Notes under the pieces: model-generated
What the model saw: only the letters and a program-made list of their open reading frames with translations
Databases searched by the model: none
Told to the model about the DNA's origin: nothing
From: Eremomyces bilateralis CBS 781.70
Taxonomy: Eukaryota
Assembly (NCBI GenBank): GCA_010015585.1
Contig: ML975153.1
DNA: 64,000 nt
Reading direction: 5' to 3' (one strand)
In this document: one piece after another, positions 15,083-25,415 of the stretch
How positions within the stretch are numbered: the stretch's first letter is position 1
How the letters are laid out: every line of letters starts with the position of its first letter
Program-made: the position numbers and the translations under genes

Positions 15083-16175
15083 TTAATCGCCGCCCCCGCC
15101 GTCGTCGCCTCCAAAGTCTCCACCGCCATCCTCGTATCCATCCTCATACCCATCCTCGTGGGCATCACCAATTGCATCCCCAATCAACGCCCCACCGACC
15201 AGTCCCGCACCGAGACCTAGCGCAGCACCGCCGCCAGCTCCCATTCCTCTTCTCCTACCGCCGCCACCGTAGCCTCCGCCATACGGGAATCCACCATGCC
15301 CACCATGGGGACCGTAAGGCATGCCGTGGCCCTGATTATAGTAGCCGTGTTGTGGAGGGTAGCCGTATTGGCTTTGATGAGGACCTGGGTAGTATCCTCC
15401 GCCTCCTTGGTACCCTTGTCCTCCTGCGCCTATCGGGAGTTTGCCCTGGGCTTTCCCTAATAACTTCCCGAGGAGGCCACTCTTCCTCCCGGAACCTTTG
15501 TCGCTGACTGCACCATATTGTTGTGATGGATCGTAGGGACCTGCAGGGCCGGGAGAATGTGATGGTCCGCCATAGTTAGGCGCAGCGCCCTGAGGCCCAC
15601 CATTATAGTAGCTGTCGGATGCGCCTCGTCTCGCGTTTTCTTCTTCTTGGAGTTGTCGTGCAATACGCTCATCGTCGGATATATTGGGCTGACCGGATCC
15701 GGATGCCGACCCTGTGTTCTGAGGGCTGAATGGGTTGTTCGAGCCCAAACGGTCTCCCTTTTCCGGCCCAGATTGTCGGGGCGTGTCGTCGTACGCGGGG
15801 GGGGGAACTGGAACTGCGGATTCAGAGGCCGGAGGAGGGTAGATTGGCTCTGTGGGCCTTTCCCACTGTGACTGCTTTGTATAAATGTTCACGTAGAACC
15901 ATTCTTTGTAATGCTCTAGGCGCAACATCAGCGCTTAACTTTAGACAGAAAGCAACACGTGGAGCGCTATTGCTCAGGGATAAAGCCTACCATTCCATAT
16001 CGCCTTCCACCCTTCCGGAACCTTAATAGGGGGTGGTCCCTACGGATAGCGGGTTAGCCGAGCATTTGCACAGTAAGGGGCGCAGAGGAAAAGGCAGAAG
16101 AATTGGATGTGGGGTAAATCGCAGCCAGGTGAGTGAAGTCAGTCGTACCGGAGGCGGGGTAAAAGTTTCTGACAT
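15083..16175 (-). CDS. WWM1: WW-domain, Gly/Tyr/Pro-rich protein (Wwm1-like)
   Basis: Spliced N-terminus MSETFTPPPGPPPIKVPEGWKAIWNEHYKEWFYVNIYTKQSQWERP (WW domain); C-terminal GAALGLGAGLVGGALIGDAI..GYEDG. Confidence 0.8.
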
Positions 16176-17387: not shown

Positions 17388-18507
17388 ATGGCTCCTCGAC
17401 CTTCAGACATCGCGGCAAATGCTGCCGTCCAAGCTCCTGGATCCTCCACCAAAGAGTTTAGGAAGGAGAGCACGGTTGCTCGATTTAGCGGCGCGGGAAC
17501 TGCTGGTATCGCGGAATTGCTCGTCTTCCACCCTGTTAGTCGATACCGAACATGAGCAGTTACGAGTCGACGTATCCTTACCATTAGATAGGTCGACACA
17601 ATTGCGAAGCGATTGATGAGTAACTATGGAAAGGTGGGTTCCAGTTCCCTTCGGCGTTAAAGAAACAGTGGCTCATGGCGCTCCCTACAGATTACGTCCG
17701 CCGCGCAATTAAATACTGTCATCTTCAAAGACAAGGCCGCGGCCCCGATAGGATCGCGATACCTAAGCCTGTTCCCCGGATTTGGCTGGGCTGCATCATA
17801 TAAAATCCTCCAACGAATCTACAAGTACGGAGGTCAACCGTTTGCCCGCGACTATCTGGCGAAAAATTACGGCAACGATTTTGACCGGATCTTCGGCAAG
17901 GGCAACGGCAAGGCGATGATGCACGCGACTGCGGGCAGCTTGATCGGCATCGGAGAAATCGTCCTGTTGCCGTTGGACGTGTTGAAGATCAAGAAACAGA
18001 CCAACCCCGAGGCCTTCAGGGGGAGAGGAGTGTTTCGGATCATCGCTGACGAGGGCTTTGGTTTGTATCGCGGATGGGGCTGGACTGCTGCGAGGAATGC
18101 GCCTGGAAGCTTTGCTGTAAGTGAATTCCGATATGCTTGTGAGATATCAATGCTGAAAATCCCTCGCACAGCTCTTCGGCGGATCGGCCGCTGCCAAGGA
18201 GTACCTTTATAAACTCGAGGATTACAACACCGCTTCTTGGAGCCAAAACTTCGTCGCTTCTATCGCTGGTGCTTCTGCATCTTTGCTCGTCTCCGCTCCT
18301 CTGGACGTTATTAAGACAAGAATCCAAAATCGAAACTTCGACAACCCCGAAAGCGGATTCCGGATCTTGTCCAAGATGATACGACACGAAGGTCCTTCAG
18401 CATTCTTCAAGGGGTTGGTCCCTAAGTTGTTGATGACCGGACCGAAGCTTGTCTTCAGCTTCTGGTTGGCGCAAACGCTGATCCCAATGTTCAATAAGGT
18501 CGTGTGA
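17388..18507 (+). CDS. GGC1: Mitochondrial GTP/GDP carrier
   Basis: FHPVDTIAKRLMSN, YKILQRIYKYGGQP, LLPLDVLKIKKQTNPEAF, ARNAPGSFALFGG and KGLVPKLLMTGPKLVFSF; three introns. Confidence 0.93.
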
Positions 18508-19216
18508 TGAAATGGAAGGGAAATCATGGTGTCTTACGGCGTTGGAATCATGCGGATTTAGCATACTAGGCAGCCACGGCGTTACCTTCCATCGGATAGA
18601 CTTTTGGGTATTCCGTACATAGAACTCTCATTTACCGTGTAATTGCATGATAGATCCCGCTCCGTCTGTGGTTCATACTATGCGAACATTGTGCACACTA
18701 GGCATTCACTACAATGTCTTAGAAGATCCAAGCATGATGTGCCAACGTGACTTCGTGTCTTGGGGGAAGTTACACGTAACACCTGGGTACTGTTAGGCGG
18801 TTAGAATAATGCCTAGAACTACTGTAGGAAATACTGAGGTCTGAGATGCTGCCACTAATGAAGCGAGAGATCATCACATCACGTTCACATCCAAAGGAGT
18901 TGTGGCCCTGATGTTCCTGTTGTCATCTTTGTCATAAATGTCACCTCACCCCCAAATAGATCCGGAATAGGCTTAGCGTGACGTAGAGGGCCATGCCTCC
19001 AGCTCCGGCCAGTCGCTCACTCCTCAGAGACATGAAACCTGAACGAAGGCAACACAACGTCAAAGAATCTCGCACCTATCATCTACCCTCATTTCCTACG
19101 CACTTTACGTTTCACCGCTGACGTCTCTTCCTACATCTGATAACGATACCCAGTCCCGTCCTATACCCATCGTCGCCTGGCCCGTACGGTCGTGTTCTTC
19201 GTCCAGCGTCATCATC

Positions 19217-20299
19217 ATGAATCCAGAGTGGTATGTCGTTCACCATCCCTCAGCGCGATGCCCCAAGCTGCTCGAAATTCATCAGAGACAAGAGCGCTGA
19301 CTTGAACTTTAGAGTATTATCATCCTTTACGAGCCTTGACGCTTCCTATCCATCGGTCCAGAGACGGAACGTCCACTCCGCCATCTCCGATCCCCACAAC
19401 CGCGCAGCGCTCAGGTTCCATGATTCGGGAGGAACGACGATCTGACGATTCTGCCATAGATACGATTACCTCTTCAAGCTGCTGCTTATCGGAGACTCGG
19501 GCGTTGGAAAGTCATGCCTGCTCCTGCGATTTGCTGACGACACATACACGGAATCCTACATCTCCACCATTGGCGTCGACTTCGTGAGTCCCCCATTCTC
19601 TTCGTACTCGCCGTTTCAGTCGCTCGTTGCCGACAGGTCGAAGCATGTTGCAGCCGTATCACTGACTCCCGATGCAGAAAATCAGAACGATCGAACTCGA
19701 TGGCAAGACCGTGAAGCTACAGATTGTGAGTATCATCCCGTTGCCGAGCTCGTCTTTGTCATATGCGAAATCGTCCTCCCTGCCCTTTGTTGTCATCCTC
19801 CAGCTGACGGATCGCAGTGGGACACAGCGGGACAAGAACGCTTCCGCACCATCACGTCATCGTACTACCGCGGTGCTCACGGAATCTGCGTCGTCTACGA
19901 TGTCACGGATATGGATTCCTTCAACAACGTCAAGCAGTGGCTGCAAGAGATCGACCGATACGCCACCGAAGGCGTGAACAAGCTGCTCGTCGGAAACAAG
20001 AGCGACATGGCTGACAAGAAGGTCGTGGAATACACGGTCGCAAAGGTTTGACCCCTCTTGAAACACTGCCTAGTTTGACGGTATATTGATGCATACGTGT
20101 TCAGGAATTCGCCGACTCGCTCGGCATCCCCTTCCTTGAGACGTCCGCCAAGAACGCGTCCAACGTCGAGCAAGCCTTCCTGACAATGGCCCGCCAGATT
20201 AAAGAGCGGATGGGAACTACCGCCAACCAGAACAAGGAGAAGATCAACATCGGCCAAGGCCAGAGCGTCCAGAGCGGAAGCAATAACGGCTGCTGTTAA
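19217..20299 (+). CDS. YPT1: Rab1/Ypt1 small GTPase; first intron is a nested (twin) intron
   Basis: [77 protein letters not shown] and C-terminal GCC prenylation motif. Confidence 0.97.
19228..19459 (+). other. Spliceosomal twin intron (stwintron), [D3,4] geometry: internal intron 19231-19312 within the external donor GTG|AGT
   Basis: Internal intron: GTATGT at 19231, branch GCTGAC at 19296, TAG ending 19312. Its removal joins GTG (19228-30) and AGT (19313-15) into GTGAGT. External branch TCTGAC at 19441, TAG ending 19459. The product reads ATG AAT CCA GA|A TAC GAT TAC. Confidence 0.85.
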
Positions 20300-21129
20300 G
20301 CGGTGTCCGATCAGTATGCCGCGCCCCTGCGGACGACAACACGCCGCAGATGGTCGTTGCACCGAAAGGGGACGCGGGGGAAAGGTAGAGAGCGTGGATG
20401 AGCAGCATGAGCATCGATAGGGCCGTCTCCTATAATACGCATTCATGCCATGCGGATGGATATGAGTGAAGGGATATTTTCGAAGGGGTCGGCGGGAGTT
20501 CTTAGGTTCGTGCCGAGCGTGTTTCGGCAGCCACTTGTCCGAGAGGGTTTCAGACAGTAGAATGTGCCGTTTTATCACGTCCAGTAGTCCTGCTCAACGG
20601 ATCGCGGTGATTGTCTCTTTGCTGTCGTCAGTGTTGGGCTTGTTTACTTGGGAATATATGTCAATTAGCAAGAATGTCAACTTTACGTTCTCACAATACG
20701 GCGATTAACCCACCATGAGATACTGTCCAAGTGTGCAATACTAGACACGCTGCTTTCGCTTTTAGCTCCAGCTGAGCTATACCACTCAGGAGCGGAGATG
20801 CTGTTTAGAACTCAGTTGCTGTAATAATATGCAGAGATTGGAATTAAGCGCTCCATTACAGGCCACGGACAATCCAAGGCATCCAATTTATCCTTTGCGG
20901 ATCCGTGGCACGTTGATATATTACCCTTGATCATATCATAGGGAGCAGGGAGTAATGTGACAGCGACCGATTCACCTCAGAAGAGTAACTCCAAATCATT
21001 TATCTGACATTAGGCCCATCGACCATCCAAAATTTTGATAGCCGTCCATTACATACTCCCGTTAAATTGCCTCAGTGCAACGATACCCAACGCTTGCATC
21101 CTCTGCATCATCCATTAGGCACCGGCCGA

Positions 21130-23490
21130 TTACAACGCCGGCGCATTCGGATCCTCCATACACTGATCCACACGCATCAACTGCTTGCCCGTCGCCTTCG
21201 CAATCTGAATAAACTGCCTCAGATATCCCACGGTGCTCGGGTACAGATAATGCAAGACGACCAAGTTCCCCCCCTTGGCCACGTCCCGGTTGAACGCATC
21301 GAGCTGCTTCTCCGGCGTCGACGTCTCCGCCCACAACCAGTCCTCGACGTCGACGCTCCAGTTGACAATGTACGGGCTATCGCTTCCCGTGGCCACGGCG
21401 AGCCGCTGGCGCATGCGGGCACCCTCGTTGCCAAATGGCGGGCGGAAGTACGGGGTGTCCAGCCCGTTGAGCTGCTCGGCGACGGCGGCGATATCCTCGT
21501 TGTATTCCCAGTCGATGGCGTTGTTGTCGGGAAGACCTTCCATCTTCGGGTGGGTGTAGCTATGCAGCGCGATCTGGTGGCCTTGGGACATCATTTCGTT
21601 GTAGACGTTGCTGAGGTTGGTGGACGCGTCTCGGAGCGGAGCACCAACGGTAAAGAACGTCACCTTGATGCCCTCTTCCTTAATGACGTTCATGACTTCC
21701 TGGGCGTACTCAGGTGAGCCGTCATCGATGGCAAAGGCAAATGAGTTGGGGCGCTTGCAGGCGAAGACGAGGTTGCCCGATGCCAGCTTGCTGGGGATGG
21801 TAAAGCCGGCAGGCACAGAGGGGACGATCTCGACTTTGGAGAAAGTGGTGGGCTCAGTGGTATACCATGCCTTCAATGAAACGCCTATGACACGACTCAG
21901 GTTGATGTTGAAGTGCGACATGGGAATATAGATGTCGCCGTTGCTTGCATACCGGGCCGCCTCGAGCGAGTCCCACGTTTCGGGGTACGGGGCAATCGCT
22001 TCGCTGCACTGAGAGTTATGTTGCTGCAGCGAGACGGTGAACTTGGTGGAGCCGCTGTACTTGACGTGAAGGTACGAGCCACTGTAGTCGGACAGATCCC
22101 TGCACGAAGCAGAAATCTGGGTATAGAATGAGTAGTCCGCATCGGTGGAGGTGATCTGGAGCTGCTTGGTGCCCCAATTCAAAGTCATTCCCTCATCCCC
22201 CCCATGCCAGAATCCAAGGGCGTTGCTGCCGGAGTTGGAGAACTCGTCGATGACAAGGGCTGCGGCAGTTCCCGATGGCGCAGGGACGGTCGCGGTAGGG
22301 CCACCGGGGTTGCTTGTGGTAGGAGGGACATATTCCGACCCAGTGCTGCCGCAGTAGAAGGACATAGGTCCGAAAGTGACGGCCTTGTTCACCGATCCAA
22401 AGAAGATGGTGGAGACCTTCGTTAGGTCCAAGCCCGAGAATTGGGAGAACGGGATCGTGTACAGCTTCTCCGTACCATCGAAGGTCCAGCCAAGCTGTTG
22501 GGTGGTCTGATAAGCGAACTGGGCGTCCTCACCACCGCAAGTGGAGGGAGACGAGAGTTCGATCCCGAAGGTGGTGCCAGAAGCAGCCTTGATACGAAGC
22601 GAGATTCCGCCATACACATTCTGAGTGTTGGTGCAGCCGGTCTTGCTGTAGAAATAGGAGTCCGTATTCTGGGGTGTCAGGGTTACGCGATTGTTGGCAA
22701 CGACAATAGACTGCATCGTTCCATCGTCACTAGTCGGCTCAATCATCGCATTATAGTACAAGAAGGTCAGTCGTGACTGGGAGGTCCAATCATCGATCAA
22801 CAGATTCTTGCACTGTCCTGTTGGCGAGGGAGTGGATGATGTAACCAACGTTGAGCTTGGCTGTTTTGTGGAGGTTGGCGGGATGACAGTATCAGATGAT
22901 TGTCCTCCACCGGCAGCGCAAACGAATTGAATGTTTCCGAGCTGCCAATTTGTGGTTGTGTCCGAGAAACCGGACCAGACGAAAGCCGTGATGGCATTGG
23001 CGTTCGCACCGGAGAAGGAACTTAAAGGAACAGTGACAGTCTGGGTTGAACCGGTAAGTCCGCTAACGAACGAGTATGCGCTGTTATATGAGCTGGCGGA
23101 GCAAGAGGTCTTAGATTGAACCTCAAGGGCGAGTGATCCACCTGCGGGCCCTTTGATCGAGAATGAAATGGCTTGGTGTCCATTAGTAGAGGCTGTCTGG
23201 CATGCGAAGGTCTCATAGAAATATGAGCCGGACTTTGGTTTGAACGTCAAAGTGCCACCGCTGGCGGAGATGGATGTCATGGATCCATCATCTTCATGTA
23301 CGATCAGCACTCCGATCTTTCCCCACAAATTGGGGCATAACCTACCGCTCGTCCATTCGTTCAATGAATTCGTGTTGGAAGACCAGTTGGAGAAATTATC
23401 GATTACGCGATTCGAACAGCTTTGGGCCGTGGATAGCTGGGTCTGGAGCAACAGAGCCGCCACAGCAGTGGCTATATAGCCAGACAACAT
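21130..23490 (-). CDS. Secreted CE4 polysaccharide deacetylase with three N-terminal repeated Cys-containing domains
   Basis: Signal peptide MLSGYIATAVAALLL; NodB motifs AIDDGS, HSYTHP, YFRPPFG, DVEDW and LH; one 54-nt in-frame intron at 23292-23345. Confidence 0.9.
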   Translation of the reverse strand: MLSGYIATAVAALLLQTQLSTAQSCSNRVIDNFSNWSSNTNSLNEWTSGRLCPNLWGKIGVLIVHEDDGSMTSISASGGTLTFKPKSGSYFYETFACQTASTNGHQAISFSIKGPAGGSLALEVQSKTSCSASSYNSAYSFVSGLTGSTQTVTVPLSSFSGANANAITAFVWSGFSDTTTNWQLGNIQFVCAAGGGQSSDTVIPPTSTKQPSSTLVTSSTPSPTGQCKNLLIDDWTSQSRLTFLYYNAMIEPTSDDGTMQSIVVANNRVTLTPQNTDSYFYSKTGCTNTQNVYGGISLRIKAASGTTFGIELSSPSTCGGEDAQFAYQTTQQLGWTFDGTEKLYTIPFSQFSGLDLTKVSTIFFGSVNKAVTFGPMSFYCGSTGSEYVPPTTSNPGGPTATVPAPSGTAAALVIDEFSNSGSNALGFWHGGDEGMTLNWGTKQLQITSTDADYSFYTQISASCRDLSDYSGSYLHVKYSGSTKFTVSLQQHNSQCSEAIAPYPETWDSLEAARYASNGDIYIPMSHFNINLSRVIGVSLKAWYTTEPTTFSKVEIVPSVPAGFTIPSKLASGNLVFACKRPNSFAFAIDDGSPEYAQEVMNVIKEEGIKVTFFTVGAPLRDASTNLSNVYNEMMSQGHQIALHSYTHPKMEGLPDNNAIDWEYNEDIAAVAEQLNGLDTPYFRPPFGNEGARMRQRLAVATGSDSPYIVNWSVDVEDWLWAETSTPEKQLDAFNRDVAKGGNLVVLHYLYPSTVGYLRQFIQIAKATGKQLMRVDQCMEDPNAPAL

Positions 23491-25415
23491 ATTGGAAAGA
23501 AATCCAGAAGCGACTGACGGAATAAGCGAATGAACGAGCACAAAGACTCAAGGACAGTCAAGAAAAAGCGAGTGATTTTTGAACGAAGCCGCAACGAAGG
23601 ACGGTATGAATGGTAGAGAAGAGACAGAAGGCGCGAGCATCAAAAGGAGCAGGCTGGGGTAAGTAAATACAGACTTCGAGAGAACCATGGGTCCCGGTCA
23701 AGCAACATGGTTTTGGGGCTCAATTAACAGAGCACCATGTATCATTCACGCATCCGTCAGAGCTCTCAAGACCTAAGGGCAGACTCAGCAAGGCAAAAGC
23801 GCCAATACTGGCACGGCGTTTCAGTCGGATGAGCCGGTTGGCCCGACCCGAACAAGAGATTTGAGATTGGCGACTGGTGGTCCAGTGATGATGGCCGGAA
23901 CTCGGAAGGAAAAGCCTCTCTACTCTCCACCATCAATTCTCCCTCCATCCTCGCTATATTATGTTCGAACTCGAAGTCAGAACTCCTCAGCTCCCATACT
24001 TTCAAGCCCTCGGCGCCTCAACCGCTCAGTAGGAGGGCAGGCAGTCCCAGGCAAGGGATTTGATCAGTCGACTGCATGCCATTCACATCAGATGGCTTTA
24101 ATGGGGAGGGCACGGGAAGGACTGGGTGAAGCGGCGATGCGTGATGCATGTACATGGGGCGGAGGTATGGGTTAGCCAAGAATTTGACCAGCAAAATCAT
24201 GCATTTGCTTGGAACTTGGATCGTGGTCTAATAGTGTCGATGGAACGGTAGAAAACGAGACGAAGAACGGGACGGGAGCTGCAGTCGATGGAAACATGGC
24301 AATTGGGAAGCAGTTTCTCGGCTGCCGGGTTCGCCTGGAGGCTCGAGATTATCGTGGCGCTAACCGCATTAGGCCAAATCCCCTGATCGTTTGTATGATT
24401 AACTGGGTAGGGCACACAACTCCGGCTTAGCGCCGTCCGGGTGGCAAGGAGAGTTTTTTTAGATTGTAGCGTCCCCGGAAACATCGTCCCCCTGACAAGG
24501 AAACAAAACGAAGAACAAGACCTGCCAAGTCCCAACCACGCCAGCCGGAATCGATGTTAGAGCGGTACGGCTTTCCGACTTCAGACGATGGCGCTTTGGT
24601 GGCGCTTTCTGAACACCACTCCCGCGAGCTTGTGACACAGAAAATCTCAGGAACCGTGTGTCATGTGTGACTACGGGATACAGTATCTGGAAAGTCGGGG
24701 ATATGATCGACCATTGAAGTCCTCCAAATGGACCAAATCAACAGACACGAGGTTGTGGAGCAAAGACAATCACCTGCCCTAGAAGCGTTGCATCGCGTAC
24801 GTAATTCGCGTTCTGTGTTAAGCAGGACGGCCTGAGATCTCGGCACAATCCTGTTGTCGGTTGTCCAGACTCCAGAGGTCCGAAATAGTGCAGTCAAGAG
24901 TGCTTGGCAAAGCTAAATTTGCAAAATCGAATCATGGTTAAGGCCTGTCTAGTTGCCATACTGATACAACTGAGTTATAGAGCAATATTCCAGTGCTGTG
25001 GTTCCCGTCCATTTGATTTAAACCCGAGCTTCAACATCAGGAATCCAGAATTGTCCTGCCACGGATGCACAGCATGTCGTATTGCCACGCTCATTTAATG
25101 CAGTGACGCCAGCAAAGTTGCGAGAACGTCCATAATAATTACTGAATATGCGTTGCCCGGGACTGAATATCCACTCACTGAGTACAGAGGGAGGAGTCAA
25201 GTCGAGTGGAGGAAAGAGGAGTGGAAACGTCACAAATTGATTCGCCCTGGTATCACTGAAGCGTATCCTAGGGTTTCAACGGCCGTGTCACTGCATATTG
25301 TGAATTCATGCTATCGTTGAGCATTATCAGAGCAATTCCAGAACAATTTCTACATCAATGTAGACGGGAACGCCACTGCAACAAAGAATGTGGCTTTCAA
25401 AACGCTTGGTTTTGT

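Follow-up and report, generated by a model that had tools for sequence, protein, structure and literature searches.

In the 64,000-nt stretch of fungal DNA analyzed here (the window), the first two exons of a ypt1 gene are separated by a 232-nt intervening sequence, located at 19228-19459, that opens with two GT dinucleotides 3 nt apart. This locus raises the question of which of the two serves as the donor, and of whether the intervening sequence leaves the transcript in one reaction or in two. Based on its splice elements, on their recurrence in other fungal loci and on the exon joint found in an RNA contig, we propose that ypt1 intron 1 is a donor-disrupted stwintron (twin intron) of type [D3,4] that is removed in two steps; we assign this reading, in which the order of the two steps is inferred, a probability of about 0.78.

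The host gene is the ypt1/Rab1 gene of a Pezizomycotina fungus, and it lies on the plus strand. The coding part of exon 1 (19217-19227) has only 11 nt, the ATG at 19217-19219 plus 8 nt, and covers Met-Asn-Pro together with bases 1 and 2 of the Glu4 codon. Exon 2 (19460-19583) supplies the last base of Glu4, includes the P-loop and runs to …GVDF; it is followed by exon 3 (19678-19725), exon 4 (19818-20045) and the coding part of exon 5 (20105-20299), which ends in …GCC and the stop codon TAA at 20297-20299. Exons 2 to 5 are all covered by an RNA contig described below, which ends at 20693, so that the 3′ UTR reaches at least this position. Exons 2, 4 and 5 match the Pfam Ras family (PF00071), with E values of 8.1e-13 for exon 2 and 1.8e-28 for exon 4. 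The peptide encoded by exon 4 shows 99-100% identity to Ypt1 proteins of named Pezizomycotina, the Ypt1 of the window is 94% identical to a Dothideomycete Ypt1, and its C-terminus, GCC-stop, carries the CC prenylation motif expected of Rab1/Ypt1. A protein search with exon 5 returned no identical named protein, the best matches being an unnamed one at 94% and one from Trizodia sp. at 86%. In the Ypt1 tree, the window falls inside the Pezizomycotina clade with support 99/99.

The other three introns of the gene are shorter. Introns 2 (19584-19677, 94 nt) and 3 (19726-19817, 92 nt) are canonical, with the donor GTGAGT in both cases, and their removal appears in the RNA contig as the joints 19583^19678 and 19725^19818. 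Intron 4 (20046-20104, 59 nt) has the unusual donor GTTTGA, which retains G at +5; its removal is likewise confirmed by the RNA contig, with the joint placed at 20043^20103 ('cut +2').

Upstream of ypt1 and on the same strand lies a mitochondrial carrier gene (17661-18507), with Pfam Mito_carr matches on two open reading frame pieces; it is transcribed to about 19079, and a contig of the RNA run spans 18700-19079. Downstream, the minus strand holds an 805-aa open frame at 21130-23547 with a polysaccharide deacetylase domain (PF01522, E 1.2e-18). A further minus-strand open frame, at 15083-15934, has a weak WW-domain match (E 1.5e-4) that is under the cut-off of Pfam.

Read from exon 1 to exon 2, with slashes marking the boundaries, the elements of the intervening sequence follow the order GA/GTG/GTATGT…GCTGAC…TAG/AGT…TCTGAC…TAG/A. 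The internal U2 intron (19231-19312, 82 nt) comprises the donor GTATGT (19231-19236), the branch element GCTGAC (19296-19301), whose branch A at 19300 is 12 nt before the 3′ end of the unit, and the acceptor TAG (19310-19312); all three elements are thus present at normal U2 spacing. It is preceded by the GTG at 19228-19230, read in the sequence as nucleotides 1 to 3 of the split external donor, and followed by the remaining 147 nt of the external intron (19313-19459; 150 nt with GTG), which contain AGT (19313-19315), the branch element TCTGAC (19441-19446) and the acceptor TAG (19457-19459), the branch A at 19445 being 14 nt before the end at 19459. Excising 19231-19312 joins GTG to AGT and rebuilds the consensus donor GTGAGT, and the external intron then becomes canonical in its donor, branch element and acceptor (GTGAGT, TCTGAC and TAG). 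The split falls between nucleotides 3 and 4 of the external donor, which defines the type [D3,4]. Within the intervening sequence, 19310-19312 is the sole internal acceptor with a branch element that also rebuilds a consensus donor. As it stands, the outer hexamer GTGGTA departs at positions 4-6 from GURWGY, the fungal donor consensus given in PMC7138796, and would probably be weak or unable to act as a donor.

The consequences of the possible splicing events were deduced in silico. The mature product has the conserved start MNPEYDYLFK, whereas one-step splicing of the internal donor to the last acceptor results in MNPE followed by an in-frame TGA, because the left-over GTG is then followed by the first A of exon 2. 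The intermediate that has lost the internal intron alone also yields MNPE-stop, with the stop at codon 5, and the unspliced RNA encodes MNPEWYV… with a stop after 27 codons. Two further models, one with a 1-nt exon and the other joining the outer GT to the internal acceptor, were rejected, as a stop or a frameshift results. The first-pass annotation, made from the DNA sequence alone, had listed every element of the nested intron, the translations of the mature, one-step and intermediate forms, and the stops produced by alternative splicing, the 1-nt exon model included; our sequence check found each element where it had been placed, and the in silico products agree with the translations and the stops.

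The RNA data consist of the assembled Logan contigs of one public run, which is not on record as RNA; assembled contigs drop rare forms. One contig of 1019 nt, with 0 mismatches to the window, joins 19227^19460 ('skips 232, GT..AG'). The same contig is without 19584-19677, 19726-19817 and 20046-20104; as it is without all four introns, it must come from spliced mRNA. The 232 nt are therefore removed exactly, and the mRNA starts with MNPEYDYLFK. The mature junction that the first-pass annotation had predicted is thus present in RNA, and a different upstream start exon, which it had named among the observations that would speak against its model, is excluded by the contig. The contigs of the run show the mature form only, with no 19230^19313 joint; given that contigs lose rare forms, the order of the reactions is not deducible from them. 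The mRNA contig covers 19198-19227 before the joint, i.e., it begins exactly 30 nt upstream of it, a start that would fit a graph branch produced by other isoforms.

To extend the comparison to other fungi, metagenome contigs were scanned with the full-length Ypt1, and 80 of the 542 matching stretches, mostly intron-less cDNA-like contigs, were kept. A separate scan of genome contigs added 5 loci, for 85 fetched loci in all; it returned no fungal DNA, its yield being, besides a single 271-nt fragment, four Rab-like genes of Asgard archaea. The Rab-like GTPases encoded by these four (L082-L085), which are on Asgard (Promethearchaeota/-ati) MAG contigs, share 34-40% identity with fungal Ypt1; small GTPases of this kind are a known feature of Asgard archaea. 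In 59 of the 85 loci, ATGAAYCCNGA is directly joined to exon 2, and none of the 85 metagenome or genome-contig loci contains an intermediate-like form or the form spliced 3 nt further downstream (+3).

An intron at the ypt1 site is spanned by five of these loci (L019, L057, L024, L078 and L060), and all five have the arrangement GA/GTR/GTAYGT or GTAAGT…branch…YAG/AGT…branch…YAG/A. Their internal donors are GTACGT or GTAAGT, preceded by GTA or GTG; a branch element stands 14-19 nt before the internal YAG (two of these distances were counted by eye); and the rebuilt donors are GTAAGT or GTGAGT. The internal unit is complete in its donor, branch element and acceptor in every case, with internal introns of 74-401 nt and external introns of 57-101 nt. 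A comparison of ypt1 first introns, such as the first-pass annotation had called for, finds GA-GTR-donor…YAG-AGT conserved in 5/5 other loci, and the central claim of that annotation, an internal U2 intron splitting the donor between nucleotides 3 and 4, is supported by the same layout in all five. For the window and these five loci together, every slip predicted in silico leads to a stop at codon 5 (TAA or TGA; 6/6); each off-pathway product ends in a TRA stop because the GTR is followed by the opening A of exon 2. A further locus, L005, is truncated and starts with …TTCAG/AGT, which fits the layout, and L014 begins too far downstream to show it.

The comparison base is small, as it comprises these five loci, including L019 and L057, which are near-copies of each other. 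The two differ at 7 of 179 intervening positions (by eye), none of which is in GTA/GTACGT, the internal branch element or CAG/AGT; one difference changes the final base of the external branch element, where T and C both agree with the consensus. An alignment of four Pezizomycotina sequences shows, outside exon 1 with GTRGTAYGT and outside exon 2, scattered conserved columns only. The interiors cannot be aligned and the elements are nevertheless shared, which indicates that the splice elements are kept while the rest drifts. As for the origin of the loci, the C-terminal tail of L078 matches a Curvularia-type Pleosporales protein, and that of L024 matches the Endocarpon (Eurotiomycete) cluster; by the same tail, L019 and L057 look like Dothideomycetes and L005 resembles Capnodiales. 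The branch elements of L060, which encodes MNSE…, are ACTAAC, and its ypt1 gene is otherwise intron-free. In the Ypt1 tree, L060 groups with Sugiyamaella and Starmerella (98/96 and 97/87), with Yarrowia adjoining, and this position identifies it as a Dipodascales-like yeast of the Saccharomycotina. The layouts of this yeast-like locus and of the Pezizomycotina may share a common origin, although convergence is possible.

The frequency with which such an arrangement arises by chance was estimated with dinucleotide-preserving shuffles of each intron interior (20000 trials per locus), the motif being a branch element plus YAG/AGT. It appeared in 194/20000 shuffles for the window, 292/20000 for L019, 183/20000 for L057, 223/20000 for L024 and 142/20000 for L078, i.e., in 0.7-1.5% of the shuffles of these five sequences of 175-232 nt, and in 1089/20000 (5.4%) for the 458-nt sequence of L060. 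Each of the six real sequences has exactly one such site. Multiplied by hand over five independent loci, the shuffle rates give a joint chance of about 6e-10.

A set of 17 canonical introns of the same genes, from which L057 was left out as a near-copy of L019, served as the control. These introns measure 54-94 nt, and the nested intervening sequences are 2-5 times longer. None of the 17 has GT at +4,+5, and 15 have G at +5; in the outer hexamer GTRGTA, +5 is T in 6/6 loci. The two control introns without G at +5 have the donors GTGAAC and GTAACT (L024 intron 3 and L078 intron 4), and weak donors thus do work in these fungi.

According to the two-step reading, intron definition would pair the strong donor GTATGT at 19231 with the nearest branch A (19300) and the TAG ending at 19312, and 82 nt would leave. 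GTG (19228-19230) would thereby meet AGT (19313-19315) in the consensus donor GTGAGT, from which a standard reaction would excise the 150-nt external intron by way of the A at 19445 and the TAG ending at 19459, joining 19227 to 19460. The chief alternative is a Δ3 tandem (GYNGYN) donor used in one step: U1 would sit on the downstream register while cleavage took place at the upstream GT, a single 232-nt lariat with the 5′ end GTGGTATGT would be released, and the internal branch element and acceptor would be idle. Formally, the outer GT could be the donor of a single reaction, as the 232 nt start with GT and end with AG; two GTs 3 nt apart (GTRGTA) are present in all six loci; the available text of PMC1779574 and PMC11162779 describes GYNGYN donors as well as U1/U6 registers that are non-canonical; and the two control introns without G at +5 show that weak donors can work. 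The RNA contigs, with the upstream junction alone, would suit this one-step reading as well; a +3 form with its stop may be degraded, and contigs drop rare forms. A tandem donor nevertheless leaves unexplained why a branch element and YAG/AGT occur, at varying positions, in six of six sequences that cannot be aligned, and why these exceed the canonical introns of the same genes 2-5-fold in length; moreover, under intron definition, the nearest acceptor would be the partner of a strong donor (PMC7138796, in its accessible part). The conserved internal branch element and YAG/AGT, the length and the unalignable interiors thus favor two steps, and we regard the one-step tandem donor as unlikely.

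Both routes might also operate together, most transcripts being processed in two steps and a sizeable share in one step from the outer GT. There is a precedent in the [D6,7] sequence of Lipomyces starkeyi, which, according to the text available from PMC7138796, leaves in one or two reactions; there, however, both donors are near-consensus, while here the outer hexamer is off at three positions in 6/6 loci, and the internal 3′ elements, being strictly conserved, would seem to be needed. Mixed processing of this kind therefore seems improbable to us. That the internal signals are meaningless, the true start being in another exon, is favored by nothing except that the coding part of exon 1 is as short as 11 nt; the mature junction in RNA, the loci in which ATGAAYCCNGA runs straight into exon 2 and the joint shuffle probability all speak against a chance pattern or a wrong gene model, which we consider extremely improbable.

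Many annotated fungal Ypt1 proteins carry wrong N-termini. Among the 146 models with the YDYLFK motif, 32 start inside the intron and read through its last acceptor (…R-YDYLFK). These 32 were discounted as support for the nested layout, as they show only that the 11-nt exon 1 was missed. Other models bear on the sequence around the donor. MNPEWYV in Curvularia kusanoi and MNPEWYA in Claviceps sp. are read-throughs of GTG GTA YG. MNPEC… is found in Bipolaris, Exophiala dermatitidis and Aureobasidium pullulans, and MQPEC in Exophiala/Lithohypha; a protein starting with MNPEC… would need an exon ending in …GAGTG right before a GT donor, and MNPEY… in Pyricularia would need …GAGTA in the same place. 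MNPEV…, annotated in Cudoniella, Pseudomassariella and Aureobasidium, is what would result if GA were joined to the RGT that follows the acceptor. Taken as evidence from protein models, as distinct from DNA, these N-termini would fit the presence of the layout in Dothideomycetes, Eurotiomycetes, Leotiomycetes and Sordariomycetes. The nested intron may help to explain the wrong N-termini, much of which may be accounted for by the 11-nt exon 1. Some public Ypt1 models include an upstream M1 aminopeptidase (PF01433) as a fusion and others a mitochondrial carrier, as in P0109 and P0280, which combine PF00153 with Ras; the carrier fusions suggest conserved synteny, with merging of the two genes where ypt1 exon 1 was missed.

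The occurrence of the layout in several filamentous ascomycete classes and in a yeast-like lineage suggests that nested introns can be stable for hundreds of millions of years. A far-reaching and tentative reading, to which we give rather low odds, is that the [D3,4] arrangement arose once, before the split between Saccharomycotina and Pezizomycotina, which would make it the oldest stwintron known, and that an essential Rab has retained it as a gate that needs two ordered reactions and turns slips, whether one-step use of the strong donor, stalling at the intermediate or retention of the intron, into a TRA stop at codon 5. If this were true, the output of Ypt1 would be tied to spliceosome capacity and to mRNA surveillance; the first-pass annotation had put forward NMD-type control of the Ypt1 level as a possibility. 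As an essential housekeeping gene that every fungus has and that is highly expressed, ypt1 would be an easy model for the study of intron definition and splice order. The locus also bears on the origin of complex introns, as in 'stwintronisation' by duplication of donor bases, for which the GTA-GTA sequence fits a 3-nt duplication, and on why the 5′-most introns persist.

Among known stwintrons, almost all are of type [D1,2], according to the part of PMC12403724 available to us; the first-pass annotation had placed most of them at donor positions 1-2 or 2-3, which is broader than this literature supports. The types shown by 2020 were [D1,2], [D2,3], [D5,6] and [A2,3], to which PMC7138796 added [D4,5], [D6,7] and [D7,8]. 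[D3,4] is absent from the type lists in the available text of PMC7138796 and PMC12403724, the terms ypt, Rab, GTPase and GTP-binding are unmentioned in the main text of the stwintron papers examined, and no ypt1 twin intron was found in the literature searched. The earlier suggestion that this case is unreported fits these type lists and main texts, as far as they are accessible, and a [D3,4] stwintron in ypt1 has apparently not been described before. It would join the series of donor-disrupted twin introns.

Two kinds of splicing outside the stwintrons resemble the ypt1 arrangement in part. Δ3 tandem donors likewise place two GTs 3 nt apart at the end of an exon; in the descriptions available, each of the GTs is cut in a single step, with isoforms one codon apart as the outcome, whereas in ypt1 the upstream junction is alone in the mRNA contigs, the +3 form would have a stop and a 3′ splice site is conserved internally. 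Recursive splicing at zero-nucleotide exons, as in BOT1 of Cryptococcus neoformans (bioRxiv 10.1101/224170, in its accessible text), shares with the two-step reading of ypt1 two consecutive reactions and the regeneration of a 5′ splice site. There, the first reaction takes the exon's own donor, and the new donor is situated entirely downstream of the joint, while in ypt1 a separate internal donor would be used first, and the 3 intronic bases left behind would form half of the new donor.

The closest published relatives are the [D2,3] stwintron of bioDA in Sordariomycetes and the [D4,5] stwintron in the reticulon-like gene of Lipomyces lipofer. As far as the available portions of PMC5639578 and PMC7138796 describe them, both have, like ypt1, an internal U2 intron within the 6-nt donor of the external one and a location close to the 5′ end of the gene, at an old intron position, and in both the internal excision rebuilds a consensus donor (GUGA/GU in L. 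lipofer; PMC7138796). Unlike them, ypt1 is split between donor nucleotides 3 and 4, and its one-step by-product has an in-frame stop rather than a frameshift; in addition, the published cases have sequenced intermediates, while the two-step order in ypt1 is deduced from sequence. The [D5,6] stwintron of rtnA, a reticulon-like gene, is described in the accessible text of PMC6616335 as the oldest reported stwintron, found across nine classes of Pezizomycotina. Like the one proposed for ypt1, it is an ancient donor-disrupted stwintron that has been kept across classes while its interior drifts. In Lipomyces, rtnA has different nested layouts at a different position of the gene, according to the text available from PMC7138796. 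In contrast to rtnA, the ypt1 layout is also found in the Dipodascales-like yeast contig L060, and it may thus predate the Pezizomycotina.
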